DNA from: a virus
Taxonomy: Duplodnaviria > Heunggongvirae > Uroviricota > Caudoviricetes
Reading direction: 5' to 3' (one strand)
DNA length: 26,741 nt
Virus record (IMG/VR): IMGVR_UViG_3300015615_001076
Coordinates: 1 to 26,741 of that record
Made by a program: the position numbers and the translations under genes. The first letter of the stretch is position 1. Each line of letters begins with the position of its first letter. Below, one piece after another: positions 934-20,280 of this stretch. The notes under the pieces are model-generated. The model worked only from the letters and a program-made list of their open reading frames with translations. It had not been told where the DNA came from and did not search any database.

Positions 934-934
934 C

Positions 935-4728: not shown

Positions 4729-5858
4729 GAGACGGTCATGGTCCCTAATCGTATCCGTTGTCCGCTCAGACACGACACATCAGCCGATGGCGTACTGAGC
4801 GTCAGGGTTTTGACACCCGTCACGCGAATCAGGGTCGCCAATAATTGTTCCCAATCCAACGACCCGCCAATACTCAGGCCGTCAAACACACCGCTTGCAG
4901 CCACCTTCAACGCCGCCGTCACGTCCGCTAAGAGGGCGTTCGGCAGCAGTGTCACGACACAGATCACGTTTTGCGTCACTGAGGTGACCGCTTCGACCGT
5001 GATGACGACCCCGGCCGCTTTATAGCCGATCACGGCATTCCCCGCCGTGTCCGTATAGCCATCGATCACTTGCTGGCAGGTCGCAATGAGCGGTGCGGAC
5101 GCGGAGCCCGCGCCGTTATCAATGTAGAGCGTCGCGGTGCCGACCGGTTTGGAGGGATCCGTCAGATACTCTTCCACCACTTTCGCGACCGCCACGCGTT
5201 CCACGATCCCGCCGGCACTGTCCAGCAACCGTACGGTTTTGGCCCCAGCCTCAACGCCCGCGATGGGCGACCGCGCCAAGGAGGCAATGAATTCTTGAAA
5301 ACGGATTTGTCGGGTATCGTCCGATTCCTCATCGGTCCCGCCCGTCATCGCCGCTGCATTGGTCACCGCTTCAATCCCGAGGATTGCGGTGCGCAAGACC
5401 GTGACGGAAGTGGCGGCCACATTACTCGCCGCGCCCGTCACACCAGCCACGACAGACGCGGTGCGGGTCGTTTGACCAGCCACGAGCGTCACATCAGCAA
5501 TCGTCTGAAACTCGACCCCATCCGCCGTCGCCACCACGGTCCCTTGCGGAATCAGATAGTCCTGTCCGGCCGCCACGCTGCGGCTGAACGTCACCGTCCC
5601 GGCTGCCGCCGTCGCCGCCAGCCGGGTGAAATCGAACGCGGTATAGATGGCTTCGGGAATCGCCTTTTCGGTGGATTTATAGAGCCGGTAGTAGAGTTCT
5701 TCCAGTTCCATCGCCACGGCTTCGAGCAACGTGCGATTCACCGACCCGATATTGAAATCCGTGATGAACGTTTGCACGGACGCGAGATAGTTCAGCATCG
5801 ACGTGGTAATCGACTCAAAATGTTTGAGGTCGAATTCCACGCGGACCGGGGTCGGCAT
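4725..5858 (-). CDS. Baseplate J-like protein (377 aa)
   Basis: DFNIGSVNRTLLEAVA, RLAATAAAGTVTF, IPQGTVVAT, AMTGGTDEESDD..R.RFQEFIASLAR motifs; TAAGGAG RBS. Confidence 0.92.
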   Translation of the reverse strand: MPTPVRVEFDLKHFESITTSMLNYLASVQTFITDFNIGSVNRTLLEAVAMELEELYYRLYKSTEKAIPEAIYTAFDFTRLAATAAAGTVTFSRSVAAGQDYLIPQGTVVATADGVEFQTIADVTLVAGQTTRTASVVAGVTGAASNVAATSVTVLRTAILGIEAVTNAAAMTGGTDEESDDTRQIRFQEFIASLARSPIAGVEAGAKTVRLLDSAGGIVERVAVAKVVEEYLTDPSKPVGTATLYIDNGAGSASAPLIATCQQVIDGYTDTAGNAVIGYKAAGVVITVEAVTSVTQNVICVVTLLPNALLADVTAALKVAASGVFDGLSIGGSLDWEQLLATLIRVTGVKTLTLSTPSADVSCLSGQRIRLGTMTVS

Positions 5859-5866: not shown

Positions 5867-6499
5867 TTAGACGGACACGACCACATTCAAGGGCACATCA
5901 TCATCCACGCCAATGACTTCGCACTGCGCCGTAATATGCAGCGCATCGATCGCATGCTGCACGGTCACGGAGGGAAGGGATCGAATGCGCGGATCACTCA
6001 GCAAGACTTCAATCACTTCTAATCGCACGAGGCTCACGCGAGCGTGATCGAGCGGATGGCCGATATGGGCGTCCAGGTTCGATCCGTAGTGCGGCCGATA
6101 GGCCAATTCTCCTTTGCGGGTCAGTAACCGGTGTCGCAACGATTGTTGCAGGTTGGCAATGCCGCTGGTCGTCCGCCAGTCTTGGGTTCCGGTGTTGGCC
6201 TCCAAATCTCCCGCGTCGGAGAGCGACAAATCGACCCCTAACAGCACATCATAGATATCGTCAGGATCGGCTTGTTCCGCCCGTTGCAGATCAGCCCCGA
6301 CCAACCCTGAGGGGAGCAGTAATGTATCGCCCAGCCCCAAGACACGTCCTGGATGAGCGGTACCGGAGATGTCGATGTACGGCCAGTCCAGTTTGTTGAA
6401 TTCCGCCAGCACGATCCATTGATCGGCATGCCCCATCACGCGTCGAGCAATCTGATGCAAGGTATCGCCGGCTTGAATCGTATAGCGTTGCGTCGCCAT
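5867..6499 (-). CDS. LysM-domain/gp25-like baseplate wedge (sheath initiator) fusion (210 aa)
   Basis: Start trimmed to MATQRYTIQAGDTLHQIARR (TAATG overlap); LysM motif, then GIANLQQSLRHRLLTRKGELAYRPHYGS...DPRI, a gp25/GPW-like signature. Confidence 0.88.
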   Translation of the reverse strand: MATQRYTIQAGDTLHQIARRVMGHADQWIVLAEFNKLDWPYIDISGTAHPGRVLGLGDTLLLPSGLVGADLQRAEQADPDDIYDVLLGVDLSLSDAGDLEANTGTQDWRTTSGIANLQQSLRHRLLTRKGELAYRPHYGSNLDAHIGHPLDHARVSLVRLEVIEVLLSDPRIRSLPSVTVQHAIDALHITAQCEVIGVDDDVPLNVVVSV

Positions 6500-7851
6500 T
6501 AGATCCTCGGAATCACCAGCGGGAGACTCGCACTCCACGTCGGGGCTTTCACCCGTGGGAAGGTCGAGGCACACCCGCTCAGACGAAACAGATCAAAGAT
6601 CGCTTGTAAGCTATCGCGCATGCCTTTGACGAAGAGATAGGGAAACGCCAAGAGGGATTGCACGGCGCAGAGCAAATTCCTGAGCGAGGTGCGTAAATTT
6701 CTCAGCGCCATGCCAAATCGCGCCGTCATCTTCGTCAAGCTGAGCGCCCAGCCCAACCCTAACATGAGCCCGCGAATCTCCTTCACGTAATTATTCACTG
6801 ACTTGATGGGCGTCGTGATATAGGAAATGCCTCGGTCCATATATTGGTTCACGGTGGAGAGGAGGCCCTTCCCTGTCGTGCGTGCCCCATCCAACCGTTG
6901 GCCAAACGTCTTCGCGCTACTGAGCACCGTGGACGCGGCTGATTGAATCGCCGCCAGGGCGGCTGAGGGACTGGGCAAACTGGTGCCGGTGTCTCGCGCT
7001 AAATCGACTTGCACCTGATAGTCGCTGATGGCCTGGATCGCCTCTGGTCCCAGCGGATCGGCCTGCGCGGCTTGCACGATGGTGTTCGTCTGTTGCTCCG
7101 CCACGGGATCGGTCGTCGCCGCTTGTTGGGCCTCGGTCGCCGCCGCGTCCGTGTCCGCGACTGCCGCCGTCAGGGCTTTACTGATCCCCTGCACACGTCC
7201 TTCCCCGCCATGCAGTCCATCCCCAATCGGATCGTCGACGCCGGGTTGTTTGACGCGCAAATCTTGCAGACCCGTGAAGCGTAACTCGTAATTGATCCAG
7301 AGCGCCTGATCTTTTGAACGTCGTTTCGTCGGCACACCGTCCGGCTCGACAATCCAATAATCATCGTCGTGATGATCGCGGAAATAGAGCCTGAGGAGCG
7401 GTTGCGGCGTCCCGGTTCGTGCGGCGAGAATCGTCCGTTCTTGATTTTCATCGAAATAGGTCTGCAGCAGATCGTGGAGCGCATGATAGGCCAAGTACCC
7501 ATCCATCAGCCTGTCCGGACTGTCCAGCCCTCTCGATCCAATCTCGCCTTCATCCCACGGACGCGCCCGCCATCCAGTGACGCCCCGGAGCGTCCATTTC
7601 GGCAAATCGAGCCCAAAGCTATCCACCCAGTGGCCGTGTGGTGTGCGCGTGACGTGATTCCGCGCCGGCTGGTCCTTGGCCAGATCTTGGGGATTCACGA
7701 AGAAGGTCAACCCTCCTGAGAATCGGACCCCTTGTCCGTTTCGCAGCACGGTGTAGGGCTGTTTTGTCTTCCCATTCACCTCAAAGAGAAACAGGCTGAA
7801 GATCCGTGTCACCGTCGCCAATTCGGTAAAGTGCGTTTGGTTTTGGATCAT
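6499..7851 (-). CDS. Baseplate/tail tube initiator-like protein (450 aa)
   Basis: FFVNPQDL...TRTPHGHWVDSFG...WTLRGVTG beta-rich N-terminus resembling tube-initiator proteins, with an Ala-rich helical C-terminus; lies between spike and gp25-like genes. Confidence 0.65.
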   Translation of the reverse strand: MIQNQTHFTELATVTRIFSLFLFEVNGKTKQPYTVLRNGQGVRFSGGLTFFVNPQDLAKDQPARNHVTRTPHGHWVDSFGLDLPKWTLRGVTGWRARPWDEGEIGSRGLDSPDRLMDGYLAYHALHDLLQTYFDENQERTILAARTGTPQPLLRLYFRDHHDDDYWIVEPDGVPTKRRSKDQALWINYELRFTGLQDLRVKQPGVDDPIGDGLHGGEGRVQGISKALTAAVADTDAAATEAQQAATTDPVAEQQTNTIVQAAQADPLGPEAIQAISDYQVQVDLARDTGTSLPSPSAALAAIQSAASTVLSSAKTFGQRLDGARTTGKGLLSTVNQYMDRGISYITTPIKSVNNYVKEIRGLMLGLGWALSLTKMTARFGMALRNLRTSLRNLLCAVQSLLAFPYLFVKGMRDSLQAIFDLFRLSGCASTFPRVKAPTWSASLPLVIPRI

Positions 7852-8684
7852 GTCGCTTTTGCCTGTTGGGTATAATGGAGATCGGGCATCAATGGGGCGG
7901 GCACCGCTGGGGCCGCCGTAGGGACCGACGAATTACTGGGACCAGACGTGACGCCGGCATGCGCGTGGCTGGTGGCCCAGGTCACATGCGTGGTCAGATC
8001 CAACTGGACCTTCTCCAGCCCGGCTTTCAAGGCCACGAAATCTTCGCCGGTCGTTCCGGCGAGATGCAGCAGCTTCCCTGAGGCGCACGACAGGGTGATT
8101 TCCCCGTCCGGCGCAATCGTGAGCTTCGCGCCGCTCGAATGTTCCACGTGGAGCGTAATCGAGGGATCGGTGGGGATGGGATGCGGGACCACCCGGCTCT
8201 TCGATCCTTGCCGTTCTCGCCGCGTGCGCGTCCCGAGTGCCGTGCCAGATCCCAAGCGGAGATAGGTGCCGGACGGGTGCGCATACTCAACGGTCCCGTC
8301 GACTTTCACCCGAAACCAGCTCCCGTCTTCATATTGCGTCAAATGGGTGTCCGCCGCTTCGGTGGTGATATTCGACAGGTTTTCATAGATAGACCCCAGC
8401 CACACAGCAAGATCCGAGGTGCCTCCTGGAAACACCACCACGCCCCAATCCCCCACCCGAGGCAAGGACACCTCGCCGACCAACTGACTCGCTCGATGCT
8501 CCAACACATGTGCTTTACAGCCTGTTTCCGCATCACTGCTGAGCAGGGCGTTGAGGTCTGGCAAGAGAATCTTCACGGTATGGTCCTGCGCGGACAGTCC
8601 CACGACTTGCGCCAGATACACGCCGTTCAAGCTCGGCACCGCCGATAATGGAATCTGTTCTCCGAATTGTGCTTGCGCCCACAT
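7848..8684 (-). CDS. Baseplate central spike (gpV/gp45-like) (278 aa)
   Basis: OB-fold-like N-terminus (YLAQVVG...SLPRVGDWGVVVFPGG), beta-repeat region, and an HxH apex motif (SHAHAGV) before the C-terminus. Confidence 0.85.
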   Translation of the reverse strand: MWAQAQFGEQIPLSAVPSLNGVYLAQVVGLSAQDHTVKILLPDLNALLSSDAETGCKAHVLEHRASQLVGEVSLPRVGDWGVVVFPGGTSDLAVWLGSIYENLSNITTEAADTHLTQYEDGSWFRVKVDGTVEYAHPSGTYLRLGSGTALGTRTRRERQGSKSRVVPHPIPTDPSITLHVEHSSGAKLTIAPDGEITLSCASGKLLHLAGTTGEDFVALKAGLEKVQLDLTTHVTWATSHAHAGVTSGPSNSSVPTAAPAVPAPLMPDLHYTQQAKAT

Positions 8685-10369
8685 CAGTGCTGCACCCTCT
8701 TTGCGGTATCGATCAGCTGCTCGAAGGTCTGTGTGACCGTCGTGAGGGGTACGATTTCCAAATCGCCCGCAATCGTCGGATCAAACAGCTGCTGTTCGAC
8801 GGGTGTACGTCCGGCGGTACTCTGGATGCCATCGAAACGCGCATAGTCCGTCTCCGACAGTCCGCGTGTCAGCGCAACCGTGGTGGTTGCCCCTTCGCCG
8901 TAGATGAATCGATGAAATACCCCTTCAATATAGAATTCCATGGGCTCCTCATGCCAGGACGACCGATCGACCAACCGTTCCCCGATATGCAGATGCGGCG
9001 ACAACCGCAGCGTTTTCGTCCCGCTCAAGAATCGATCGTTCAACACGTTCCAGCTCGCCAATTTCCAGCCAAGGCTCGTATAGAAATCAAACATCGTTTC
9101 GGTTGTGTCCTGGCCGCCGAGCGGTTGCATGAGGGTACATTGCGGAGTCAGGGGCCGATAGCCGTAGCGATGAAACCGCGCCCGATCCAAGACCGGCGGC
9201 AGACTCAAGGCCATCATCCGTTCGTTGAGCACTGGATAGGAGGGCATCGGCAAGTACATGTTGTAGGTTTCGTGATCGGATTTCGACAGTTCTTGGAGCA
9301 GCGGTTCGCCCTGGATCTCTTCGTCATGGCCGATTTCATGGCGGATCAACTGTCTCCAGTCCTGGCTCCCCGCACTCGCCGTCACCTGGATCACGGTGGA
9401 GATCGAAGACCCATCCTGTGTCACAAGCCCGTTCGCCTTTTGCTGAGCAAGAGATCCCGGTTGTGCTAAATAGGGAAAGGGCGTTCGGCGCAGGACTACG
9501 GTCGGAGCCGACCGGTCCAGGCCCAGCGTAAATCGTGCCGCCTTTGTTTCTCGTTCGCCCACCACGGCCTTCACCGTGATCCTCGTCGTGTTCGTCTTGT
9601 CAATGATAGGACGTGCCGCCACATTCGTGGTCGCGGTACGCCGCGTATCGATGAACAGTTCGTGAAATGGGGGCGAGGCCACTTTCACAAAGAACGACCA
9701 AAAGGACCCTTCTCCGCTGATGAACTTCATGTCCAGCCCAGCCGGCATCTCGGCATCATACGACGAGAGGTCATAGGCCAGGAGATCCCACAACTCACGC
9801 ACGCCCCCATGCACATGCACCGTCGCTCGCAGGAACCGCTCGAAGATATCGCCGAGTAGATTGCGGATGATCCGTGACGGTTTCTCTCGAAAGCGCGACA
9901 GGTCCACAAATTTCTGAGCCTGTAAGAGCGCCGCGCCTAAAAAGTTCCAATAGGTGACCATCCCGTTGACAAAGAACTTCCCGAAATCTTTCCCCCGCAC
10001 GACAATCCTTCGCTCAGGAGAGCCACGTTGATTCATGGCCAGGGTGTCGGTCACACTGTCCACCAGGCCGATCATCACCGTATGCATCTCGCCCACGCCG
10101 TCCGCTCCAGACGCCCCGCTATGGTTCATCATCTGAATGACCACGAGATCTTGCGGGTTGATCTTATCGGCCCAGGTGCGGCCTTGGCCGTCTTTCGTGC
10201 GAGCAAAGTGCAGTTCCCACTGTCCCACCGCCGCATCCATGCCTAAACGTTTCGCCGTCGTGCAGACCAAGAGATCGCCGGACGGTTGGGTGCCGGGTGC
10301 CATGTCGAGCGACACGCTATAGGTCTCGGTCTGCGTATGGATATCGACCAAACACACGGGATAGTTCAT
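8684..10369 (-). CDS. Baseplate hub (gp27-like) protein (561 aa)
   Basis: MIGLVDSV...IVVRGKDFGK, PPFHELFIDT, VVLRRTPF and FLSGTKTLRLSPHLHIGERL...FYIEGVFHRF...TTTVALTRG motifs; directly precedes the spike gene. Confidence 0.82.
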   Translation of the reverse strand: MNYPVCLVDIHTQTETYSVSLDMAPGTQPSGDLLVCTTAKRLGMDAAVGQWELHFARTKDGQGRTWADKINPQDLVVIQMMNHSGASGADGVGEMHTVMIGLVDSVTDTLAMNQRGSPERRIVVRGKDFGKFFVNGMVTYWNFLGAALLQAQKFVDLSRFREKPSRIIRNLLGDIFERFLRATVHVHGGVRELWDLLAYDLSSYDAEMPAGLDMKFISGEGSFWSFFVKVASPPFHELFIDTRRTATTNVAARPIIDKTNTTRITVKAVVGERETKAARFTLGLDRSAPTVVLRRTPFPYLAQPGSLAQQKANGLVTQDGSSISTVIQVTASAGSQDWRQLIRHEIGHDEEIQGEPLLQELSKSDHETYNMYLPMPSYPVLNERMMALSLPPVLDRARFHRYGYRPLTPQCTLMQPLGGQDTTETMFDFYTSLGWKLASWNVLNDRFLSGTKTLRLSPHLHIGERLVDRSSWHEEPMEFYIEGVFHRFIYGEGATTTVALTRGLSETDYARFDGIQSTAGRTPVEQQLFDPTIAGDLEIVPLTTVTQTFEQLIDTAKRVQH

Positions 10370-10375
10370 GGTTGC

Positions 10376-10510
10376 TTAGTCACACGTCTGATTGGGTTGC
10401 GCACGCTGCACCGGCTCGCCATGTTCCTTCTCCGCTTCCCGCTTTCCGCATTCGTCACAGATTCGGTTCTCGCTCCCATTGTCCTGTTCGTGCCAGGGGC
10501 ACCAGGTCAT
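10376..10510 (-). CDS. Micro-protein, zinc-ribbon-like (44 aa), absent from the ORF track
   Basis: Translated by hand: MTWCPWHEQDNGSENRICDECGKREAEKEHGEPVQRAQPNQTCD*. ATGA overlap with the upstream stop, ends 6 nt before the hub ATG; CxxH...CxxC. Confidence 0.7.
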   Translation of the reverse strand: MTWCPWHEQDNGSENRICDECGKREAEKEHGEPVQRAQPNQTCD

Positions 10511-11583
10511 TGTCTGGCGAATAACGGTTCGTCCTGGTCGCGCTTCACATCCATCCCACCTGCGCCGCCGGTTGCGCCACCGCCTCCGCCGCCACCTTCA
10601 ACCCCTTCCATCTCCTCTGCTGCGCCAATCCGCTGTCCGGAATCCGTATCCCACTGGGCCGCCAGTTGGTACGCGGTGGCGATATACCCCGCACAGGTCC
10701 CAGCTCGATAGAAATTTGAGGTCACCATATTCATGCCATCAGGAGAGACGAGCGCCGTCTTGGCCTCTGCCGGCCAGTCCCATGTGCCCCCATCGCAATC
10801 CACGCAATCAATCGTGGTATCAATAATCTTCTTTTCTGACGCCCCGCTGGTAATGTTTTTTCGGTAGACCTTGAGATACGCGCCAGGCGTGCCGTCCATC
10901 CCGTGCCCAATGATTTCGTAGCGCCACCACGAGCCAGGTAAGGCCCCATCAGCGGCCGCCGCCGTATCGTACCCAGGGCCGAACCAGCAACAGGGCGAGA
11001 CATCCGGGAGCCAGTTATAGGGGGCAGAATCTATAGCACCCCACCCATAGACCTGGGGAGTTTTGAGATCCGTCTGGTGAGACATCTGGATAAACGACGT
11101 CTGTATGGTGGCCCATTTGCTGGAGTTTGTGCAGGAGCCTGTATAGGTGGAGTAGTTGGAAGAATAATACGCGTACCATCGATAGGCCCAGCGGCCCTGT
11201 GTCTGCAGCTGAAATCCACTAAATGTGTAACCCCCTTCGGCCTGGTTGCTGTAACCCTCTGGCAAGACTAATACGCGGGTGTTGGTATGGGCCGCCGGCA
11301 GTGCGGAGAACACTGCGGCATAGGTACTCGATGTGGCTGAGACGGGATCGATGGCGTCCTCGTGAGGAAAGAGGAATTCTACACTGGCATCAAACAGGCA
11401 CGGCTTAGTGGGAGTCGTGTTCTGGTGCCATCCGTAGGAGTTCCCGCTATCTTGGGCAATCGTCGAGTTCCAACTTTGGGCGCATTTCGACGCAGAGCCT
11501 AATGCCACGGACCTCGCCTCTTCGTCGGCCATGGCCGCACAGGGCCACGCCAACAGCGCTAGGAGCACCGCATGTCGCATCAT
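10507..11583 (-). CDS. Secreted Cys/aromatic-rich beta protein, possible glycan-binding or lyase-like fold (358 aa)
   Basis: Signal peptide MMRHAVLLALLAWPCAAMA|DE; many Trp/Tyr; paired Cys; Gly linker near the C-terminus; ATGA coupling at both ends. Confidence 0.75.
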   Translation of the reverse strand: MMRHAVLLALLAWPCAAMADEEARSVALGSASKCAQSWNSTIAQDSGNSYGWHQNTTPTKPCLFDASVEFLFPHEDAIDPVSATSSTYAAVFSALPAAHTNTRVLVLPEGYSNQAEGGYTFSGFQLQTQGRWAYRWYAYYSSNYSTYTGSCTNSSKWATIQTSFIQMSHQTDLKTPQVYGWGAIDSAPYNWLPDVSPCCWFGPGYDTAAAADGALPGSWWRYEIIGHGMDGTPGAYLKVYRKNITSGASEKKIIDTTIDCVDCDGGTWDWPAEAKTALVSPDGMNMVTSNFYRAGTCAGYIATAYQLAAQWDTDSGQRIGAAEEMEGVEGGGGGGGATGGAGGMDVKRDQDEPLFARQ

Positions 11584-12332
11584 TGGCCTACTCCCATCGT
11601 CGTAAGACTTTTCACGGTGCCGCCACCTCCGCCTCCACCGCTCGCCGCAATCATCGGCACACCAGTCACCATCCAGTTATCGGTGAAGTCCAGCGTCCCA
11701 CTGGCAGTCACGCTAGCCCCGGCAGATGTTTCATCGGATACCCCGACGCCCGTTTCAGAATTTGGCCTATTGATCCGTGACGCCTGAGAGCCATCGAAGG
11801 TCAAGATTCGGTTCGAGTTGTTTGACCGCCACCAAAAGAACTCCGCCACGACATCCCCACTGGTGGTGGTGATTGACGTAGACGGCGATGAGGCACTGCC
11901 CGTGCCAACGGTCGGAGTGCGGTCGGGAGTAGTTTGATCCACGCCGCTGTACGTCACAACTCCAATGGCGAGGTTACTGGCAGCTCCGGTCGTAAAGGCC
12001 ACCGCTTGCGATCCGCTTGACGGCGATTTCAGGCGATAGATGTTTTGCCAATAGAGGTCACCAAATGAATGGGCCTGGCTACTGACAAGCGTAACGCCAG
12101 TAGAGCTGCCCCCCACGGTCGGAGTATTGATATTGTCCGCCCCTTCCCAGTCTGTGTGGCAGGCGATGTACATCACCCCATCGGTGAGCGATCCCACCGT
12201 GATGTTAGCCGACACGGACGTAGCCGCGTTTGCGCCGTTCGAGGATTGCGCATCAAAGGCCACTGCCGCCCAACCAGCAGAGGGCCAGAGCAGGAGTGCG
12301 CTGAGTGTGAGCGCGAGAATGTCTTTCGTCAT
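11580..12332 (-). CDS. Secreted Ser/Thr/Gly-rich beta-sandwich protein (250 aa)
   Basis: Start trimmed to MTKDILALTLSALLLWPSAGWA|AV (ATGA overlap); ends in GGGGGGGTVKSLTTMGVGQ. Confidence 0.78.
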   Translation of the reverse strand: MTKDILALTLSALLLWPSAGWAAVAFDAQSSNGANAATSVSANITVGSLTDGVMYIACHTDWEGADNINTPTVGGSSTGVTLVSSQAHSFGDLYWQNIYRLKSPSSGSQAVAFTTGAASNLAIGVVTYSGVDQTTPDRTPTVGTGSASSPSTSITTTSGDVVAEFFWWRSNNSNRILTFDGSQASRINRPNSETGVGVSDETSAGASVTASGTLDFTDNWMVTGVPMIAASGGGGGGGTVKSLTTMGVGQ

Positions 12333-15058
12333 GGCGCGGCCACCACTGTAATAACCCCTGAGGTTTGCACCGCTGCCGAGGACACCAAACACAACACGCG
12401 GTTCGTGCCGCCCGTGCGAGCAATCGACCCGAGACCACTACCAAGGGTCAAGCCGCCATTGGCCGCAATGTTCCACCCGCTACCCGCCGTGGTTCCACCG
12501 GCTAAGCCAGAAGTGACTGAGCCACACCCGTCGCTGTCGTCATCGACGAGCGCCAGGTTTTGTGCACCCGCTACCGGCCCGATATTGATGGAGCAGACGT
12601 AGTAATGATTTGAGGCTCCTGCGAGCGAGGCCGTAATTTCGGTGGTCGTTGCCGTAGAAATGTTGATTGGTAGATACTGCTTGGCAACTCCGCTACAGGG
12701 GTCTAGCAAGCGCGTCCACAGCAACCCGAGTGCATCGGTATTGATCGTTGAGTTATCCCCGCTCGTGCCTGAGCTGGTGGCTGCCGCATCACGCCTGATC
12801 GACCCTGCCATCGACAAGTTTCCGCCTGCGGTTTCGGCAGCGTCTTCGACGTAGACGCCCCAGTTGGCCGCTGTACCGGGATTGACATTGCCAATTGTGT
12901 TAGAGCCCGTTGGCAGAGCTGGGAGGCTGGCAACATCCACGTCGCCAATGTTGTTATTTCCGGCAGGGATGGCAGGCAGAGTGAGCACATCAACTTGCAA
13001 CTCCCCGCTAGTATCAGTCTTCAACGCTCGTGCGTTGGTGCCGTCTGTCCCGGCGACAAATGAGGCACTCGTCGGGACGGCTGAGCCAGTCGCAATCGTC
13101 GACGCGCTGATGTTGCGGACGACCAAAGCAGGATCGCTGGCGCCTGGCGAGGAGGTTGTCACTACCGCTGTATTGGTGCCATCCGTGATCTTGTGGAAGC
13201 CTGCTCGTGCGGCCGCATCCATCATCGGCATCGTGTTCGTGCCATCGAACGGACGCGCATACAGCAGCCGATTGCTGTCCATTCTCGGCGCACCCATATT
13301 GCCGTCGGTAATCGTCGGTGGTGTCGTATCGTAGAGTGCGCCCATTGGCGCGAGATCGTCAGCGCCGCCCGTGAAAGCAGCATTATCGTTGTGGGTCGCG
13401 CCAGACCCGCTCCCGCCGCAGGTCTCAAAGGCATTCCCCGCTGTATTCACACAGCGAATCGAGACAGAGGAGGGTGAGGCTGTCGTCGGCAAGTTCGCAT
13501 CGACGTGTAAGCGCCCGCTGGAAACATTGGCTTGCGTGGTGTCTCCGGTCCCGTCTTTAATAATCCCATCTTGATTGGCTGCCGTCGCCGCTCCGGTTGG
13601 GAGTGAGATGGTGCCTGAGACGTTCGTAATGTTCCAGGTACCGGATTGGGTCGCCGGCTGCGGCGTGGTGCCGGTGGGGTCCATCCGCAACGGGGTGCCT
13701 GATGTGCCGACTTCCGTCCCGCTGTTATTCCGAAGATTGGTATGGAGTGCTTTTTGGGCAGTGATCCGCGCCACCGCCGCGCTGTTCTCCGTTGCTGTAT
13801 TGGTGCCGACATCATCGAGCACCCCGCCAATCGGATTGATCGCGGTGGTCCCAAAGGTAAACGCGCCGTTATCGCCAAACCCCGACGAGCTGCTACAGCC
13901 GGAATCGCAGACCATATGCAAGTTCGTCCCGGTCCCTTGCGTGACAGTCACGCTTCCGCTAATGGGCTGGGTCGCTTGCCAAAAGGTTCCGGTGACGGCC
14001 ACGGTACCATCAATGGTCAACGGCCCAGAGCCATCACCGACAAGTTGGGTGTTGGCTGGTTCGGTCTTTTGCCCAAGCTCAATGAGAGCCTGATTCACCA
14101 GATCCGTGAGCAGTCGCAACTTCGCGTTGATCGAGCCAGCACCGCCTGCGATCGCAGCAGCATCTCCCGTTGCGCCGATCCCCGAGGCGGAAGCGGCCAG
14201 ATTCCCGCCTGACTCCAACGCGAGGGCCGAGGTGTTGAGGTTCGTCCCAGCGTTGGCCGTCACCGCGCCGCTCACCGGTTGCGTCACGCCGGATCCATCC
14301 ACGGGGAGTCGCCCGGAGACCGGCGTATACTGCGACAGGTTCACGCCACCAATAGTGTTGGCCCCGGCGGGGAGACTGGGCAGTGTCGTAATACTGCCGA
14401 TGTTCCAGGTGCCGGATTGGGTCGCCGCGAGCGACGCATTTTGGACGTTGACATGGAGCGCCCCTGCCGTGAGCAACAATCGATCCCAGGTCGCGCCGTC
14501 CCAGGCCATGAGCCCGCCATGCATAAACGTGGCAGTTTGCGCGGCCACGTTGTCGGCAGAACCAAAAGCAGCCGGAAACAGGGCCGTCCCGGTGCTCCCG
14601 GTCGGTAACATGTAGGGAATGCGATTCGCATTCATTCGTGCCAGGCCTGCACTATTTTCCGCAACGGTGTTGGTTGAGGTATCATCGACCACGAACCCGT
14701 TGAGTCCAATGGAGCTTGACCCGAAGGAAAAGGCACTGCCATCTTGAAAAGATGCGCCCGAGCAGCCCGCGACACAGTCTATTTGCAATTGCCGATTGGC
14801 ATTCATCCGTGGGACACCGACCCGTCCATCGGTGATGGTTGGCGGCGTGGTGTCATACAGAGCGCCCATCGGAGCCACATCGTCCGTCCCACCGGTGAAC
14901 GGCGCGTTGTCGATATGGGCGGCGCCCGATCCTGAGCAGTTCGTGCAGCTCATACTCCAGTTGCCGGACTGCTTGGCATTGACCGTGCCCGGCGAGACCT
15001 GGGCCTCGGCCGCGACCGGCACTCCCAATAACAGCACAAGGACTAACACGTTACGCAT
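12329..15058 (-). CDS. Large secreted repetitive fibre/adhesin-like protein (909 aa)
   Basis: GGAGGT RBS before MRNVLVLVLLLGVPVAAEA|Q (alternative start 15094 by ATGA overlap); Gly/Ala/Thr/Ser-rich, internal repeats, beta-sandwich-like C-terminal domain. Confidence 0.8.
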   Translation of the reverse strand: MRNVLVLVLLLGVPVAAEAQVSPGTVNAKQSGNWSMSCTNCSGSGAAHIDNAPFTGGTDDVAPMGALYDTTPPTITDGRVGVPRMNANRQLQIDCVAGCSGASFQDGSAFSFGSSSIGLNGFVVDDTSTNTVAENSAGLARMNANRIPYMLPTGSTGTALFPAAFGSADNVAAQTATFMHGGLMAWDGATWDRLLLTAGALHVNVQNASLAATQSGTWNIGSITTLPSLPAGANTIGGVNLSQYTPVSGRLPVDGSGVTQPVSGAVTANAGTNLNTSALALESGGNLAASASGIGATGDAAAIAGGAGSINAKLRLLTDLVNQALIELGQKTEPANTQLVGDGSGPLTIDGTVAVTGTFWQATQPISGSVTVTQGTGTNLHMVCDSGCSSSSGFGDNGAFTFGTTAINPIGGVLDDVGTNTATENSAAVARITAQKALHTNLRNNSGTEVGTSGTPLRMDPTGTTPQPATQSGTWNITNVSGTISLPTGAATAANQDGIIKDGTGDTTQANVSSGRLHVDANLPTTASPSSVSIRCVNTAGNAFETCGGSGSGATHNDNAAFTGGADDLAPMGALYDTTPPTITDGNMGAPRMDSNRLLYARPFDGTNTMPMMDAAARAGFHKITDGTNTAVVTTSSPGASDPALVVRNISASTIATGSAVPTSASFVAGTDGTNARALKTDTSGELQVDVLTLPAIPAGNNNIGDVDVASLPALPTGSNTIGNVNPGTAANWGVYVEDAAETAGGNLSMAGSIRRDAAATSSGTSGDNSTINTDALGLLWTRLLDPCSGVAKQYLPINISTATTTEITASLAGASNHYYVCSINIGPVAGAQNLALVDDDSDGCGSVTSGLAGGTTAGSGWNIAANGGLTLGSGLGSIARTGGTNRVLCLVSSAAVQTSGVITVVAAP
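13301..14875 (-). repeat. Duplicated coding module APMGALYDTTPPTITDG (14825-14875 and 13301-13351)
   Basis: 17 identical residues; codon-by-codon comparison shows 14 of 16 non-Met codons differ synonymously. Confidence 0.9.
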
Positions 15059-15090
15059 GGCCGTCCACCTCCCGTACTCAGTACGACTGC

Positions 15091-15447
15091 TCATCTCGCC
15101 ACCATGATAATCTCAGTGATTTGTGCGCCGCCGTCATTCGGATCGGCAGCCCAGACGCCGGTGACGCGACCGATATAATCGAGGATTTCCAGCGTGGAAT
15201 ATTGCTCCAAGCGATAGGAGTAATTGGTCGGAGAAGCAGTGCCGTTTGCCTTCAGGACGTACAACGCCGCTGAACTGTCATTCACGATGGTGAGGCTCGC
15301 CCGGAACAAATTCGCTTCTCGAAACACGGTACTGACCAGGGTGTCATTTATGCGAGCCACCGAGGACAGTTCGCCTTTGGTAATGGGACGCACCACGAGC
15401 CCATAGTCTGAGGACTCGGGCGGCACTTTACTGATCGGTCTGCGCAT
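15091..15447 (-). CDS. Small beta-rich virion decoration-like protein (118 aa)
   Basis: AAAGGTGA RBS; NLFRASLTIVNDSSAALYVL pattern recalled from small phage beta-sandwich proteins; no signal peptide. Confidence 0.7.
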   Translation of the reverse strand: MRRPISKVPPESSDYGLVVRPITKGELSSVARINDTLVSTVFREANLFRASLTIVNDSSAALYVLKANGTASPTNYSYRLEQYSTLEILDYIGRVTGVWAADPNDGGAQITEIIMVAR

Positions 15448-15470
15448 ATCTCACCTTTCCAATCAGACAA

Positions 15471-17399
15471 TCATTTTGCCCCCGACGAACCAAACACCGA
15501 TTTGCCATGCATGCCACGACGCACCGCATCCAGCGCCATCGCGCCAAAGGGGAACAGTCCCGTAAGCGGATTCGACGTGCTGGTATTAGTCGCTGTGTTC
15601 GCCACTTCGGTGCCGGCCAAGATGGCGAGTTTCTCCGCAGCCAATTTGGCCTGAATGCCGAGCAAACGAACGTCTTCGGTGGCTGTTGCAATATCCGCTG
15701 AGAAAACTTCCTGCATGGCATCTTGCTTTGAGCGACGTCCTTCAACCCCGGTCAGTGAGCCATCCGCCTTCTTCCCGCGCATCATCCGTTGGATTTCATC
15801 CGGCAGGGCCTCCCCCAACGACTCCATCATTAAGAGCGGATGACCTTCCAGGCTCTTCGCCCGTTTTTTTCCGAATTTCTTCTCTACCGCTGACGAGAGC
15901 GCACCGGTCATTTCCAGCAGGGCGCCGCCTTCTTTTCCGGTCAGCGCTTGCAACATCAGCATTTCGCCGTTTGGCCCGGCCGCTCGTGCCGCCTCCCCCG
16001 CCAATCCAGAGAACAATTTCGGATTCTTGCCGTTCCCCATGAGTTCCGGCAGGATCTGCATGATGGTCTGCATCTGTTGCATTTCGGTCATGGCGTCAAA
16101 CGCCCCGGCCCGTGCGCCATTCAGCCCAATCTCTTTGCCCGTGGGAACGCGTCCGCCGAACTGGCCCATGATCGCGTTCATCATGAACCGCTCATGCGCA
16201 ATCGACTTCGGCTGTTGAAACGCCCCCATCAGCGACGAGAGTTCCTGAGCGCCGCGTTCGCCCTTGAAGAATCGGCTGTCGCTATTCGAAAGGAGGGCTT
16301 GCACCCCCATCAAGCCGTTTTTGTAGTCTGCCGAGATGACGCCTAAACGGCTTGCCGCCTGTTCCGACAGGCCCATCATCGACCGCATGGTTTCACTCGC
16401 ATCAACACCGTTCTTCATCCCCGCTTCAACCGCTGCGGTCATCGACCGCCAAAACTGGGTTTGCTGGCCGGATTCCGCGATGCCGAGTTGGGTGGAGCGA
16501 CGACCCACCGCCGCAATGGCGTCAGGGTTTTCGCCGAACCCATAGGCTCGCGCAAACAGCCCTTGGGCCTGTATCGCGGAGCGTAGATTGCCGGAAGACG
16601 AGGGAATCCCAAAGGCATCGACCATCTTTGTGAGGTCGTCGCCGGTGTAGCCGAGGTTCATAAACTCTGTGTCGGTCACGCCAGGACGCGCATGCTGAAA
16701 AAGACGGCGCAACCCTTTGCCCATGCCGGTGCGTCGCCCTGCGTTTGTGAATCCCACATCGATATCTTCGCTGTAGCGCGAGGCGTCATCGGCACGATTC
16801 ACGAGCCAATTCGCTCCACCCAGCGCCAAGGCTGTCCCGGCGATCAAGGGATGCGCCATCACGGCCCGCCCGATGGCCCCCATGCCCGCGCCGATCAGCC
16901 CACCATTCATCGCCTGTTGGGTAGACATCTCGAAGAGGCCCCCGCGAGCCGCCCCACCGGTCATGGATTCCTGGGCGGTGCCCACCGCGATGGTATCGCG
17001 CAACCGATTGACGAACTGTCGGGCTTCTTGGGTCTCGCGTTCGCGAGCCCTGATATACCCGGAGGAGAGGCCGTGCTCCGTCCGTTTGAGGCGGCTCAGG
17101 TTGTCCTCCAACATGCGCACATGCGCCAGTTCTTCCTTGTAGAGCGTGTTGATTTCTTTTTTGTTTTTAATGAAGGAGCCTTGCGGCCCGATCGTACTGA
17201 TGAGCTTGCGTTCCACTTGGGTGAGGAGATCGACTTCCTGCTTAGCGGATTGTTGGCCGGCTGGTCCGCCTGGGGCCTGCGTGGCTCGCTCGGCCGCCTG
17301 CTTGACGTGCGCCGGCAGGTTCGCAATGGCCCGCTCCGCCGCCCCCGTGTCGACTTCGAGGGGTACGCGGACTTTGATATCGACCCGTTGATCAGCCAT
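15471..17399 (-). CDS. Tape measure protein (642 aa)
   Basis: Follows tube and chaperone genes; Ala/Gly/Met-rich helical sequence with an N-terminal coiled coil and a hydrophobic patch; start overlaps the post-frameshift ORF stop by 8 nt. Confidence 0.85.
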   Translation of the reverse strand: MADQRVDIKVRVPLEVDTGAAERAIANLPAHVKQAAERATQAPGGPAGQQSAKQEVDLLTQVERKLISTIGPQGSFIKNKKEINTLYKEELAHVRMLEDNLSRLKRTEHGLSSGYIRARERETQEARQFVNRLRDTIAVGTAQESMTGGAARGGLFEMSTQQAMNGGLIGAGMGAIGRAVMAHPLIAGTALALGGANWLVNRADDASRYSEDIDVGFTNAGRRTGMGKGLRRLFQHARPGVTDTEFMNLGYTGDDLTKMVDAFGIPSSSGNLRSAIQAQGLFARAYGFGENPDAIAAVGRRSTQLGIAESGQQTQFWRSMTAAVEAGMKNGVDASETMRSMMGLSEQAASRLGVISADYKNGLMGVQALLSNSDSRFFKGERGAQELSSLMGAFQQPKSIAHERFMMNAIMGQFGGRVPTGKEIGLNGARAGAFDAMTEMQQMQTIMQILPELMGNGKNPKLFSGLAGEAARAAGPNGEMLMLQALTGKEGGALLEMTGALSSAVEKKFGKKRAKSLEGHPLLMMESLGEALPDEIQRMMRGKKADGSLTGVEGRRSKQDAMQEVFSADIATATEDVRLLGIQAKLAAEKLAILAGTEVANTATNTSTSNPLTGLFPFGAMALDAVRRGMHGKSVFGSSGAK

Positions 17400-17634
17400 G
17401 CATCAGCTCCTGGACGCGGGATTCATATCGACGCGTAACCGCCAGCTCTGGGTGATCGAGTTCATATTGAGCCCACATCCAGGAGACCTGGGCATCCGTC
17501 AACGAGAGGACCGTCTGATCAAACGGATGCGTGTTGAGCATCCGCGCCAGGTGCCACCGTTGGCGCTCCCTCGGCAGTGCGGCCAGTTGACGGATCTCGT
17601 CGTCGGTCGGGAAAGGAGTCGCTGAATGCGACAT
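17392..17634 (-). CDS. Tail assembly chaperone, post-frameshift (T-like) ORF in the +1 frame
   Basis: Overlaps 17519..17998 in the +1 frame; its ATG has a GGAGGT with zero spacing, which is poor for initiation; WHLARMLNTHPFDQTVLSLTDAQVSWMW resembles T-part chaperones; abuts the TMP. Confidence 0.72.
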   Translation of the reverse strand: MSHSATPFPTDDEIRQLAALPRERQRWHLARMLNTHPFDQTVLSLTDAQVSWMWAQYELDHPELAVTRRYESRVQELMHG

Positions 17635-17998
17635 ACCTCCCGTAGATGTCCCAGAGCAGATCCATATCGGGAATCAGCTCGGGTGCCGCCGTGCGATCGC
17701 TCTCGCGCTGATGCGCATCGCGTTTGATGTCGTACCACCAATCCGGCGCCTTCCGAACGACGACCGCCAGCGTACTAAGCATAACCACGGTCATGCGCGT
17801 CGCCGGATCAAGCTCTTCAATCTGGACCCCTTCACGCAGGCGATGCTGCACCACCCCAATCTTCAAGAGGTCTCGACCGGTCGGAATCGCAACAGTGAGC
17901 GTGCCCTGTAACGTGGGAACACGTTTGGAGGACACGTCGAACGATTCGGTGTACTCGATACCTAATGCGATCTGTCCGGATCGTGCGGTATCCACCAT
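17519..17998 (-). CDS. Tail assembly chaperone (G-like, 159 aa)
   Basis: Between tube and TMP; GTLTVAIPT...STLAVVVRKAPDWW motif typical of myovirus chaperones. Confidence 0.82.
   Translation of the reverse strand: MVDTARSGQIALGIEYTESFDVSSKRVPTLQGTLTVAIPTGRDLLKIGVVQHRLREGVQIEELDPATRMTVVMLSTLAVVVRKAPDWWYDIKRDAHQRESDRTAAPELIPDMDLLWDIYGRYVAFSDSFPDRRRDPSTGRTAEGAPTVAPGADAQHASV
17609..17617 (-). other. Candidate +1 ribosomal frameshift site UCC_UUU_CCC
   Basis: In frame with the chaperone (codons 128-130); tRNA-Phe can re-pair UUU to UUC, entering the 17392 ORF. Confidence 0.6.
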
Positions 17999-18000
17999 GG

Positions 18001-18483
18001 TTAGCTCTCAGTCCTTCCGACCGGTCCGCCAAAACTCCCAAGATAGGCCGGCGTTCCGCGCTCAACGCTCTTCGCATGGAAGGTCGCGTTCTGCCCGGAG
18101 AACTGATTCGCGGTCACTTGATAGGAGAAGTTCCCGACCGTACAGCCCTGATACACCATGATGGTGTTGTCGATGTCGTCCAGCACTTCGAAGTCGATCA
18201 ATCCCACATCCAACGCTTCCCGTGGCCCCATCGGTGCCAGATTCATGAGCTGCACGGCGTCACCGAGCTTGGCTTGGTGAATCACAAATTGATCGAGGGT
18301 GATTTGCGCTGCCCAGCGCATCGGCGTATGTTCCGCCGGTGCCACATCGCCCAGCGCATACACCGGCTCGGTGCCGTAATCCTGGGTGAACTGTGACGAA
18401 CGACCGTAGCCGACGGTGAACCCCCCGGCCTTGATCCGGACAACATGCCCTCCCTGGGCCACCTGATTCCTCAAATCTGCCAT
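18001..18483 (-). CDS. Tail tube protein (160 aa)
   Basis: Follows the sheath; VGYGRSSQFTQDYGTEPVYALGDVAPAEH...IDFEVLD...YQGC resembles SPO1/K-type tube proteins; GGGAGG RBS. Confidence 0.9.
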   Translation of the reverse strand: MADLRNQVAQGGHVVRIKAGGFTVGYGRSSQFTQDYGTEPVYALGDVAPAEHTPMRWAAQITLDQFVIHQAKLGDAVQLMNLAPMGPREALDVGLIDFEVLDDIDNTIMVYQGCTVGNFSYQVTANQFSGQNATFHAKSVERGTPAYLGSFGGPVGRTES

Positions 18484-18495: not shown

Positions 18496-20280
18496 TTAAA
18501 CGCTCGCCACAACCGTCGTCGGTGTCAGCCCGGCCGTAATCGTGATGTACCCAACCTCTCCCACCGGATGGGCCTCATAGGTCACGGCGACCAGATCAAA
18601 GCCATCGAACTCAGCCCGGACATTCTTGAAGGCCGGTTCGACTTGACCGGTTTCAGTTTGGCCTTCGGTCAACACTCCGACCTGATTTGTCGCGGTGCGG
18701 GTCAATGAACGCAAGCGCGTTACGGCGGCATTGAGAATACTCGTCACCACCGTGCGATCCGCCGTACGTCCAATAAACCGCTGCACCGCATATCGGATAT
18801 TCCGGTTCAAGTGATGCGCGATCGCTACGCCGGAGTGTTTCCTCCAGATCACGTTGGCATCTTTGAGATACGTCGTAATCCCCTGCACAATGCGGAAGGT
18901 CCCATCGCTGGGGACGCCCTCTAATGGCATGACCCCTTTGTCTAACAGGGTCTCAATGTCGGTGAGTGTGAGCGTCTTCTCTAGGCCGCTCACCCGAATG
19001 GTCTTGTAGGTCAGTGGGGTTTCCGGCGTCGCTCCTGCGGCAATCCCGCAGACGATGGCGGCGGCATACATCGGGGAGAGTGCATCCACTACCCCGGTCA
19101 AAAGGTTTCTTCGCTTCACACCAGGGTAGACCACGTCAACATGGTATTGATTGAGCGCTTGGGCTCGCGCATAGGCCTGCGCCACCGTTTCATTGGCCGC
19201 TCCGCCCACCACGGCTTGGCGCTCATGCCGTCTCGTGACACCACTTTCGACCTTGCAGTGCGCGGCGAGCATCGCGTGGATGGTGGCGTCCTCTGAACAG
19301 ACAAACATCAAATTCACTTCATGCGTGGTGAACGCATCCAAGGCGGCTTGCCAGTCATTGTTCGTCACCGCCGCCCCTTCCGATCCGCCCGCCAGAAACG
19401 TATACGGAATGTTGACCGGCACAAGCACGGCCCCTGGCACCCGCGAGGCGGTCACGAGTTGGGAATTCGTATTCACCCACTGCACGATTGCGCCGATGGC
19501 CGCCACATGGGTATAAGCCGCGCTTTTACAGGCAATCCCGGCTTGGGCGTCAATCGAGGCACTAGGCATCGCGGCATCGCCCTTGATCGTGCAGGTGAAA
19601 TCACTGAGGGCATCGAGATACGAGGCCAACAATCCCACCGTCGACAGACTGGCCATGGTGAGATCGAGCTCTAGTTCGGTCACCCAGGGATCGCCGCTCC
19701 CGGTCGCTTTCGTTTGCAGCCGGAGAATCGTCGCGATGTCTCCGCTCTTCACGACCACCACTTGAGCATCAAATTTAGAGCCGACGTACTGAATGGCGAA
19801 GACCTCGCCTAAGTTGTCTCCCACTTCGAAGACATCGGTGTTGAGCACGTCGTTGATCGTGATTTTCTTGCCGGACAGCGTCCCTGTTTCGACCTTGACA
19901 CGAATCTGATTGGTCCAGGACCCGGCATCGCTCGCCTTCAGCAGCAGGACGTTGTTCAGCCCGGCTTCTTGTAAGTTCAGTTGCGCATGGACCGCCTGAT
20001 TCAACCGGTAATACTTGATCCGTCCAGCCCCTTGTTCATCGCCACTCGGGTCATACATCAACTCAATCACAGACCGTAAGACACCGCCTCGCAACTGCTG
20101 TCGGGCTTCTTCCGGGCTGGAGATATCCGTCACGGCCCGTGGGGCGCCTCCCAACGAGGTTCCAATGACCCCCACGGTATTGACCGCCCCCGGTCGGTTG
20201 GGGACCATCGCATCGGCATTGATCTTGGAGTAGACCCCCGGCTTGAGGATGGTCCGCCCATCAAAATAGATCCCCTTCAT
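18496..20280 (-). CDS. Contractile tail sheath protein (594 aa)
   Basis: KPGVYSKIN, VIGTSLGG, FLAGGSEG...WQAALDAF, PLTYKTI, LLDKGVMPL, FRIVQGITT sheath motifs; AAGGAGG RBS. Confidence 0.96.
   Translation of the reverse strand: MKGIYFDGRTILKPGVYSKINADAMVPNRPGAVNTVGVIGTSLGGAPRAVTDISSPEEARQQLRGGVLRSVIELMYDPSGDEQGAGRIKYYRLNQAVHAQLNLQEAGLNNVLLLKASDAGSWTNQIRVKVETGTLSGKKITINDVLNTDVFEVGDNLGEVFAIQYVGSKFDAQVVVVKSGDIATILRLQTKATGSGDPWVTELELDLTMASLSTVGLLASYLDALSDFTCTIKGDAAMPSASIDAQAGIACKSAAYTHVAAIGAIVQWVNTNSQLVTASRVPGAVLVPVNIPYTFLAGGSEGAAVTNNDWQAALDAFTTHEVNLMFVCSEDATIHAMLAAHCKVESGVTRRHERQAVVGGAANETVAQAYARAQALNQYHVDVVYPGVKRRNLLTGVVDALSPMYAAAIVCGIAAGATPETPLTYKTIRVSGLEKTLTLTDIETLLDKGVMPLEGVPSDGTFRIVQGITTYLKDANVIWRKHSGVAIAHHLNRNIRYAVQRFIGRTADRTVVTSILNAAVTRLRSLTRTATNQVGVLTEGQTETGQVEPAFKNVRAEFDGFDLVAVTYEAHPVGEVGYITITAGLTPTTVVASV

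Follow-up and report, generated by a model that had tools for sequence, protein, structure and literature searches.

The subject of this report is a cassette of five genes in a window of 26,741 nucleotides (nt) of viral DNA. The window opens a provirus record of IMG/VR (IMGVR_UViG_3300015615_001076) and covers 26.7 of its 90.7 kb; the record lies on a contig of about 719 kb. The cassette is placed among the tail genes, between the tape-measure gene and the first baseplate gene, and three of its five products carry predicted signal peptides. The whole analysis was computational, and the cassette is known here from its sequence and from predicted structures. The reading that we favour, with a probability of roughly 0.42, is that it codes for a mobile, late-expressed set of fibre, lectin and enzyme that is assembled in the periplasm and acts on host surface glycans off the virion.

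Layout, expression signals and composition of the cassette

All structural genes of the window are on the minus strand. The five open reading frames (ORFs) of the cassette code for proteins of 118, 921 (909 from an internal Met), 250, 358 and 44 amino acids (aa), designated w118, w921, w270 (the longest ORF of this frame has 270 aa), w358 and w44 (table 1), and the cassette comprises about 1,700 codons. All four junctions inside the cassette are ATGA overlaps, and its edges are separated by 23 nt from the tape-measure gene and by 6 nt from the gene of a 561-aa tail protein. This gene set, with its ATGA chaining between tape measure and baseplate, had been described in an initial annotation of the window, and the ORFs and the four overlaps were all found again.

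A scan for promoter-like sites of the sigma-70 type found none between positions 8000 and 18000, where 3.4 were expected, and terminator-like sites in the same region are not more frequent than by chance. For this reason the cassette is taken to be read together with the late tail genes; it appears to be part of a late operon without a promoter of its own, and hence no classical moron. Its total GC content is the same as that of its flanks (0.58–0.61), contrary to the impression first gained that it is less GC-rich, and the GC content at third codon positions (GC3) is only marginally lower (0.64–0.67 versus 0.69–0.72 in the flanks) and inside the range of the other tail genes. A foreign origin recognizable by composition was ruled out by the equal GC content and the slight GC3 drop.

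Predicted signal peptides

Signal peptides were predicted with a home-made heuristic based on n-, h- and c-regions and an AXA cleavage site; its background rate is about 10% (60 of 548 genes). Among the 24 ORFs from the capsid gene to the tail fibre gene, the heuristic flags only the 921-, 250- and 358-aa proteins. Their leaders are tripartite, with a positively charged n-region, a Leu/Val-rich h-region and a small-x-small site, and the predicted mature N-termini are Q32, A23 and D20, numbered in the 921-, 250- and 358-aa frames, respectively. The initial annotation had proposed classical signal peptides for these proteins, and the independent heuristic arrived at the identical cleavage sites.

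The sequences of the leaders differ among relatives while their build persists. According to the heuristic, the leader of w921 is kept in 95 of its 120 best relatives, about seven of the other 25 being merely truncated sequences, and that of w358 in all 10 relatives. The suspicion that the homologues are generally leaderless was thus not borne out for the closest relatives. The w358 family has an invariant Ala preceding the cleavage site and a conserved mature N-terminus, D/A-x-E-x-R..LG..KC. Relatives of w270 occur in two forms, either with a leader or with the initiating Met directly on the conserved mature N-terminus A(V/I)AFDA. Such starts would be the expected pattern for a detachable export module that is cleaved at the predicted site. 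The AlphaFold2 (AF2) model of w270 presents the leader as a separate helix outside the fold.

Other kinds of N-terminal signal were considered and rejected. A lipoprotein signal does not fit, as no lipobox is present and relatives of w358 do not share the Cys of its leader; a Tat signal would have a twin-arginine motif, and there is none. A signal-arrest-release (SAR) anchor does not fit either, the h-regions being strongly hydrophobic, Leu/Val-rich rather than Gly/Ala-rich, and followed by clear cleavage sites.

Summed over all the readings that involve export, it is highly probable that the three proteins leave the cytoplasm; we infer their actual export and cleavage from these leaders.

The five proteins

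More than 1883 relatives of w921 were found, none with a family or Pfam name. The protein consists to 55% of G/S/T/A/N, has 11% of charged residues and contains internal duplicated modules. One peptide of 17 residues, APMGALYDTTPPTITDG, is encoded twice (13301–13351 and 14825–14875); 14 of the 17 codons differ between the two copies, all synonymously, and both copies of the repeat module therefore seem to be under strong selection at the peptide level. The repeat modules are common to w921 and the 'trimeric spike' proteins of the tectiviruses Bam35, AP50 and Wip1. In an 883-aa leaderless relative (L027), the module at residues 481–574 is 42–50% identical to protein 28 of Bam35c and to the spike proteins of AP50 and Wip1, all from Gram-positive tectiviruses; tailed and tailless phages thus share a repeat module.

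The C-terminal jelly-roll domain of w921 ('type 1') aligns in VIA-align with Ena1B (Z 8.7), the STIV turret (8.4), XepA (8.1), YomS (7.5) and the Bd2133 fibre tip (6.7), and also with the cement proteins of KHP40 (7.1), GP4 (6.8) and Pam1 (6.3); Z values of such size are common among jelly rolls, many others of which score equally. A BFVD search with the domain gave 83 matches (E<=1e-3); most are phage proteins about 110 aa long (E 1e-5 to 1e-8), and some are named virion structural protein. Two traits of the fibre type, a fibrous repeat shaft and a distal globular jelly-roll head, are both present in w921.

The AF2 model of w270 has a predicted local distance difference test score (pLDDT) of 87 and consists of a leader helix (residues 2–14), a sandwich (25–227) and a disordered tail (233–247). 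Its matches in AFDB, at template modelling (TM) scores of 0.6–0.74, are domains fused to cellulase, xylanase, beta-helix, FN3 or immunoglobulin (Ig) domains, and those in the Atlas, at TM 0.73–0.84, are phage proteins of 213–231 aa. Solved structures reach a Z of about 5 at most, and Foldseek against the PDB gave no meaningful match for w270. A profile search with the domain retrieved 29,764 cluster representatives at E<=1e-3, in a family without a Pfam model; no Pfam match links w270 to the concanavalin A-like lectins or LamG (PF13385). In phages the domain stands alone; in bacteria it is fused to the partners just named or found with an IPTL-CTERM sorting signal. The w270-type domain (about 205 residues, window 11652–12260) occurs as a single copy, in tandem (up to six copies) or in giant proteins of up to 5,721 aa.

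In the w358 family 49 residues are invariant, rich in R/W/Y/K/E/C and of an enzyme-like kind. The neighbours of w358 in the Atlas are polysaccharide-lyase jelly rolls (PL14, heparin lyase I), at 0.90 by features and a TM of about 0.5; the pLDDT of the Atlas model is only 0.47, and the likeness is a lead only. None of 10 members of the family has a Pfam match at E<=1, the lyase families PF14099 and PF21294 included.

The small first protein, w118, is 33–38% identical to the last 90 or so residues of two leaderless proteins of 1026 aa (L020; BLASTP E 2e-13) and 883 aa (L027; E 8e-11). It appears to be a stand-alone copy of an alternative ('type 2') C-terminal tip domain of the leaderless fibre proteins. 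It has tblastn matches in eight loci, and all of its 100 nearest clusters in the Atlas are phage proteins of about 113–147 aa (score 0.96).

The last ORF, w44, had been listed as a Zn protein: the ORF and its Cys/His pattern are present, but the zinc-finger match (E 0.048) is below the threshold. Searches of the fetched loci and of the rest of the genome found no relative of w44. The ORF is translationally coupled to the cassette, but its membership of the mobile module is unsupported.

For the five proteins together, Pfam and PHROGs gave no usable family, the only matches being phrog_9224, of unknown function, and the sub-threshold zinc finger. A PDB sequence search with w921, w270, w358 and one leaderless relative gave no match.

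Paired Cys, noted in the initial annotation for the two larger proteins, were seen in both. w921 has 12 Cys, with close pairs C50/C53, C107/C111, C396/C400 and C548/C559 and four in the C-terminal domain, and w358 has nine, one in the leader and eight in the mature part. The maturation in the periplasm that had been deduced from them is not proven, as leaderless relatives keep their paired Cys equally well.

C-terminal tails

The hydrophobic-GVG motif in which w270 ends is found in partner proteins of 11 loci and in none of the 548 background genes. Proteins of the w358 type have a linker followed by a GGMD(V/L) end. The bodies that precede these tails vary by locus (lectin-like, beta-helix or others), and a constant tail on varying bodies would be the pattern of a docking peptide.

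The codons GGA GTA of the tail are at window 11583–11600 and at the equivalent sites in five related loci (L004, L006, L001, L008 and L011), and are used more than a GC-rich genome predicts. The idea that the GVG tail is purely a ribosome-binding site was rejected: it explains GGAGTA, but not the hydrophobic positions that vary synonymously or the tails before non-overlapping genes. An alternative tail, aromatic and Arg-rich (F-x-R-R-R-V type; FYRRRV, FRLRVN), is carried by the single-domain w270 relatives P0127, P0139, P0174, P0235, P0275, P0282 and P0285.

Insertion and mobility

By their sheath and baseplate proteins, the nearest cultured relatives of the provirus are the Thermus phage Cumys and the Bordetella phage PHB04, and the backbone is that of a Herelle-like/PHB04-like temperate myovirus. 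Both phages have the gene order of the window: sheath, tube, tape measure, homologue of the 561-aa protein, spike, tube initiator, gp25-like and gp6-like. PHB04 and Cumys encode nothing related to any of the five proteins. Because the two phages keep the tail order without the cassette, we regard the latter as an insertion; it is accessory and not a conserved tail component. The initial annotation had stated that a tape-measure gene is normally followed by baseplate genes, and these phages bear this out, going directly from the tape measure to the homologue of the 561-aa protein. In Cumys (L075), a reverse-strand gene for a 'putative lipoprotein' (18786–19352) stands exactly at this junction; the junction thus accepts inserts, and seems to be a hot spot for those that encode envelope proteins.

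A megablast search of the cassette region against cultured phages gave no match, and no cultured phage carrying a relative of the cassette proteins was found; a search for related loci in viral contigs with the 561-aa protein also had no match. A genome scan with a single protein found four contigs only, from metagenome-assembled genomes (MAGs) of mixed phyla (Nannocystis, a 'Mycobacterium' bin, Blastocatellia and Roseiarcus).

Related cassettes are present in phages of other types. In contigs of P22-like podoviruses (L004, L006, L001 and MW202554), a large relative of w921 comes first in a trio of leader-bearing proteins encoded between the portal and the scaffold/coat genes. L004 is from a Nitrospira MAG; the big protein of L006 matches w921 at 84% identity over its last 299 aa. 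In MW202554, the place of w270 is taken by a Laminin_G_3 lectin-like protein (PF13385, E 8e-14), and the other equivalent by position is a protein resembling GH28/pectate lyase. Another contig (L076), with siphovirus-type Phage_tube_2 and tape-measure genes, has a block of w270 and w358 at 75.8% nucleotide identity over 1728 nt. There the block is preceded by a leader-bearing big protein and followed by a second leader-bearing run that includes a 912-aa beta-helix protein, and the cassette lies upstream of the Phage_tube_2 gene.

By these comparisons the cassette is mobile and not tied to one place among the virion genes. Its description as a tail-module cassette is correct for the window, where it lies within the tail operon, but it is not tail-specific, being found after the portal gene in the podoviruses and near the tube gene in the siphovirus-like contig.

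The same genome has, outside the window (46239–53296), a second run of leader-bearing proteins (386, 426, 403, 933 and 90 aa) after a leaderless protein of 166 aa. The latter (genome 52796–53296) is MADN-like at its start and type-1-like at its end. At its N-terminus the 933-aa protein resembles a beta-helix of the pectate-lyase fold, and it is 42% identical to the 912-aa protein of L076.

Leaderless sister cassettes

Sister cassettes were surveyed at 46 loci. In many of these phages the big protein is leaderless and begins with a conserved segment of about 40 residues, MADN...ATDD..G.H.Q.VKL, and its partner ends in the same hydrophobic-GVG tail as w270. Eleven leaderless relatives share the segment; w921 and 11 other relatives with leaders have nothing that matches it. 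In these, the leader takes the place of the constant N-terminus, a likely virion anchor. The leader state of the big protein agrees with that of the partner with the tail motif: both have a leader in six of six loci, both lack it in five of five, and there are no mixed loci. It is likely that the three leader-bearing proteins of the window act jointly, within a single compartment.

A tree of 42 single-domain relatives of w270 has the leader state scattered as if shuffled, with 17 changes, at least nine of which are forced by well-supported branches. Some leaderless calls may be gene-calling artefacts; most of those of the w270 type are considered real because starts consisting of Met and the mature N-terminus are recurrent.

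Proposed function and alternative explanations

We propose that a mobile accessory module, the cassette, has entered the late tail operon of a temperate myovirus of the Herelle-like/PHB04-like kind. In this proposal w118 would be a small cytoplasmic tip-domain protein, and the host Sec system would export w921, w270 and w358 to the periplasm late in infection. There, w921 would be a long fibre-like repeat protein ending in a jelly-roll head, w270 a beta-sandwich of the kind that is elsewhere fused to glycosidases, beta-helices and Ig/FN3 domains in secreted proteins, and w358 a conserved Cys-rich enzyme-like jelly roll. The three proteins would fold and pair in the periplasm, w270 and w358 being tethered via the short peptides beyond their Gly linkers. 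Host glycans, of the envelope or of the matrix, would be the target of the complex both before lysis and afterwards. It would be free or cell-associated and not a built-in part of the virion, and its likely uses would be the release of progeny from matrix and debris, or the destruction or masking of receptors. Gene structure, the conserved leaders, the insertion, the exchange between phage backbones, the agreement of leader state within cassettes and the missing N-terminal segment are read directly from the sequences. Complex formation, the glycan substrate and the off-virion location are what we infer; the folds (Atlas neighbours of w358, AFDB and Atlas neighbours of w270), the equivalents in MW202554 and the 933-aa beta-helix protein of the second run point to extracellular sugar biology.

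As to the location after synthesis, we give a small edge to a free or cell-associated complex over docking on the virion. This is because the putative anchor segment is missing in the leader-bearing forms, the phage has an ordinary tail fibre of its own, the cassette is dispensable in relatives and lies at unrelated genome positions in different phage types, and XepA is a precedent of an exported late prophage protein that is absent from particles (PMC6834076). Several points weigh against the proposal of an off-virion glycan complex. The export call is a prediction, by a heuristic that also flags about 10% of background genes (60/548). w921 resembles a virion fibre, with the repeats of tectivirus spikes and a jelly roll like that of small phage virion and cement proteins, and those sister cassettes that lack leaders are placed within structural modules, in the way of ordinary fibre genes. 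The tight translational coupling to the tail genes is what would suit a part of the virion structure, and the shared compartment of all members suggests a complex, of which the branched kind is best known on virions. An enzyme activity of w358 is backed by no family match, its lyase likeness being a lead from a poor Atlas model. Finally, the GGA GTA codons for the GV of GVG double as a GGAG ribosome-binding site, 8–10 nt before the overlapping start of the next gene, and part of the conservation of GVG may belong to that site. The late exported system proposed in the initial annotation is thus upheld in its genuine-looking conserved leaders, its late operon and its insertion, but in the more distant sister cassettes no member has a leader, and these look like the usual fibre modules of virions.

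The particles of tailed phages are taken to be assembled wholly in the cytoplasm. A strong rival to our proposal, only somewhat less probable, is that the proteins are exported, fold in the periplasm, perhaps with disulfides, and bind finished particles at lysis, as auxiliary head or tail fibres with lectin and enzyme side-arms that dock on w118 or another virion protein. The fibre-like repeats of w921 agree with this, as does its jelly-roll head, which is like those of cement and small virion proteins (KHP40 Z 7.1; BFVD matches named virion structural proteins). The P22-like contigs carry the cassette inside the block of head genes, between portal and scaffold, and the sister cassettes that lack leaders have the look of normal modules for virion fibres. 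Among w270-type proteins, even close relatives frequently differ in leader state (at least nine forced changes among 42 sequences), so that the site of synthesis cannot be critical, as expected of proteins able to bind finished particles. Mature capsids are bound in vitro by decoration proteins such as lambda gpD, phage L Dec and T4 Hoc/Soc, and docking after lysis would therefore be feasible. Both cassettes of the genome are preceded by a small leaderless family member (w118 and the 166-aa protein) that could stay with the particle, and the Cys are paired. On the other hand, the N-terminal segment that leaderless big proteins conserve is missing from the leader-bearing ones, no small leaderless protein accompanies the P22-like cassettes, and the Cys are just as conserved in leaderless relatives; a literature search found no tailed phage that adds virion parts after lysis. 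Rather unlikely, in our estimate, is the generalization that some tailed phages finish their particles outside the cytoplasm, a Sec-exported fibre, a lectin arm and an enzyme arm maturing in the periplasm, joining via C-terminal docking peptides and attaching at lysis, with kits with and without leaders swapping in evolution.

That the genes code for ordinary cytoplasmic fibre or decoration proteins, whose hydrophobic N-termini are due to chance, to an oligomerization or membrane-tether segment or to mis-called starts, would agree with the homology to leaderless phage proteins in structural modules, with the prediction of the leaders by heuristic only and with the dependence of some leader and leaderless calls in metagenomic proteins on gene calling. 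We consider this improbable, since three adjacent proteins each have the complete tripartite build, the same build is found in most relatives despite unrelated leader sequences, leaderless relatives start exactly at the predicted cleavage site, and the leaders are strongly hydrophobic, unlike the Gly/Ala-rich SAR type. Slightly more improbable still is a module for lysogenic conversion or superinfection exclusion, by which the lysogen would make exported proteins that change or shield the cell surface, like lambda Lom/Bor or the HK97 gp15 moron. In favour of it are the provirus nature of the element, which is on a 719-kb contig, the insertion at the junction where Cumys has its reverse-strand lipoprotein gene, and the predicted export of the products. 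Against such a module stand the promoter and terminator scans of positions 8000–18000 (0 promoter-like sites versus 3.4 expected; terminator-like sites at chance level), the shared orientation with the tail genes, the spacing of 23 and 6 nt from them and the ATGA coupling, and the size of about 1,700 codons with fibre-like repeats, unlike known exclusion proteins.

Comparison with known systems

Modular receptor-binding sets of phages comprise tail fibres, tailspike depolymerases and side-attached partners (P22 gp9; the branched sets of phages of the CBA120, G7C and K1-5 type). The cassette is like these in its late expression, its mosaic exchange between unrelated phages, its fibre repeats with a distal jelly-roll head and its companions resembling lectins and sugar-cutting enzymes, and its leaderless sisters sit in structural modules. 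It differs in that w921, w270 and w358 have Sec leaders in place of an N-terminal virion anchor, that the companions have C-terminal peptides after Gly linkers and not N-terminal adaptor domains, and that there is no sequence family match. The cassette would be a modular phage set of fibre, lectin and enzyme, of a kind already known, here with export signals.

Morons such as lambda lom and bor or HK97 gp15 come with a promoter and a terminator of their own, and the lysogen expresses them. Like them, the cassette adds genes for predicted envelope proteins between conserved tail genes and is absent from relatives; unlike them, it has no promoter or terminator of its own and is translationally coupled to late genes. 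With cement and decoration proteins (KHP40, GP4, Pam1; lambda gpD, phage L Dec), the cassette shares the jelly-roll fold of the w921 C-terminal domain (Z 6.3–7.1). This likeness is at fold level only and at middling Z, and the domain here ends an exported fibre of 900 aa.

XepA of the Bacillus subtilis prophage PBSX is a late jelly-roll protein that has been reported to be exported beyond the membrane and to be absent from mature particles (PMC6834076). The C-terminal domain of w921 aligns with XepA and with YomS of SPbeta at the Z values given above. There is no sequence similarity, however, and XepA belongs to a lysis cassette of a Gram-positive element and forms a pentameric dumbbell, not a fibre. 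Other late phage proteins that depend on Sec are the signal-peptide endolysin Lys44 of fOg44, SAR endolysins and the Rz/Rz1 spanins (PMC6116005; PMC6834076). They too arrive at the envelope ahead of lysis by way of the host's Sec system, as is predicted here, but they are small and encoded beside holin genes, whereas the cassette codes for large fibre-, lectin- and enzyme-like proteins in a structural operon.

The literature search found no description of leader-bearing fibre cassettes in tailed phages, and missing signal peptides have been used as an argument for the phage origin of a protein (PMC6199706). A large, recurrent and mobile class of late-operon cassettes with export signals on their fibre-, lectin- and enzyme-like products would mean either an unrecognized step of virion maturation or a widespread secretion of sugar-binding and sugar-cutting complexes. 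If the secretion of glycan-active complexes is true, it bears on the spread of phages in biofilms and flocs, whose hosts here are probably Nitrospira-type and other environmental bacteria, on the prediction of host range from genomes and on the search for depolymerases. The parts defined here are a very large, unannotated family of beta-sandwich domains with about 30,000 cluster representatives, short C-terminal tail peptides of two kinds and an N-terminal segment that separates leaderless from exported forms.

Other features of the window

The features of the cassette and of its surroundings are listed in table 1. The phage already has genes for a tail fibre of the ordinary kind, leaderless, and for the remaining baseplate proteins.

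Table 1. Features of the cassette and of the structural genes around it (positions in the window; aa, amino acids).
Feature	Position	Strand	Remarks
Five cassette genes	10376–15447	minus	
w118, small leaderless cassette opener, 118 aa	15091–15447	minus	ORF; no leader by heuristic
w921, large fibre-like repeat protein, 921 aa (909 aa from internal Met)	12329–15094	minus	predicted Sec leader at N-terminus
w921 signal peptide	15002–15058	minus	residues 13–31; predicted cleavage AEA↓Q; heuristic; relatives' leaders of same build
w921 C-terminal jelly-roll ('type 1') domain	12332–12709	minus	three to four conserved Cys; AF2 pLDDT about 90 over last 125 residues
w270, predicted exported single-domain beta-sandwich, 250 aa (longest ORF 270 aa)	11580–12332	minus	Gly-rich linker, 'hydrophobic-GVG' C-terminal tail
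w270 signal peptide	12267–12332	minus	22 residues; predicted cleavage GWA↓A; heuristic
w270 Gly-rich linker and tail motif (...LTTMGVGQ)	11583–11648	minus	
w358, predicted exported enzyme-like protein, 358 aa	10507–11583	minus	Gly-rich linker, 'GGMDV' tail
w358 signal peptide	11527–11583	minus	19 residues; predicted cleavage AMA↓D; heuristic
w44, Cys-rich ORF closing the cassette, 44 aa	10376–10510	minus	ATGA overlap; CxxH...CxxC pattern
Major capsid protein	24535–25989	minus	
Sheath	18496–20280	minus	
Tube	18001–18483	minus	
Tail chaperone pair	17392–17998	minus	
Tape-measure protein, 642 aa	15471–17399	minus	upstream flank of cassette; comes after tail chaperone pair; homologous to Cumys_25 (E 7e-11)
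Tail/baseplate protein, 561 aa (SPO1 gp12.1 type)	8684–10369	minus	downstream flank of cassette; phrog_1015 (E 3e-36); homologous to Cumys_23 (E 6e-28) and PHB04 gp007
gpV-like spike	7848–8684	minus	
Tube initiator	6499–7851	minus	
gp25-like	5867–6574	minus	
gp6-like	4725–5858	minus	
Tail fibre, 735 aa	1703–3910	minus	leaderless

Downstream of the tail fibre, at window 1–1417, two proteins with hydrophobic N-termini, of 160 aa (935–1417) and 121 aa (1–366), flank a 141-aa protein of phrog_1501; this is probably the lysis region.

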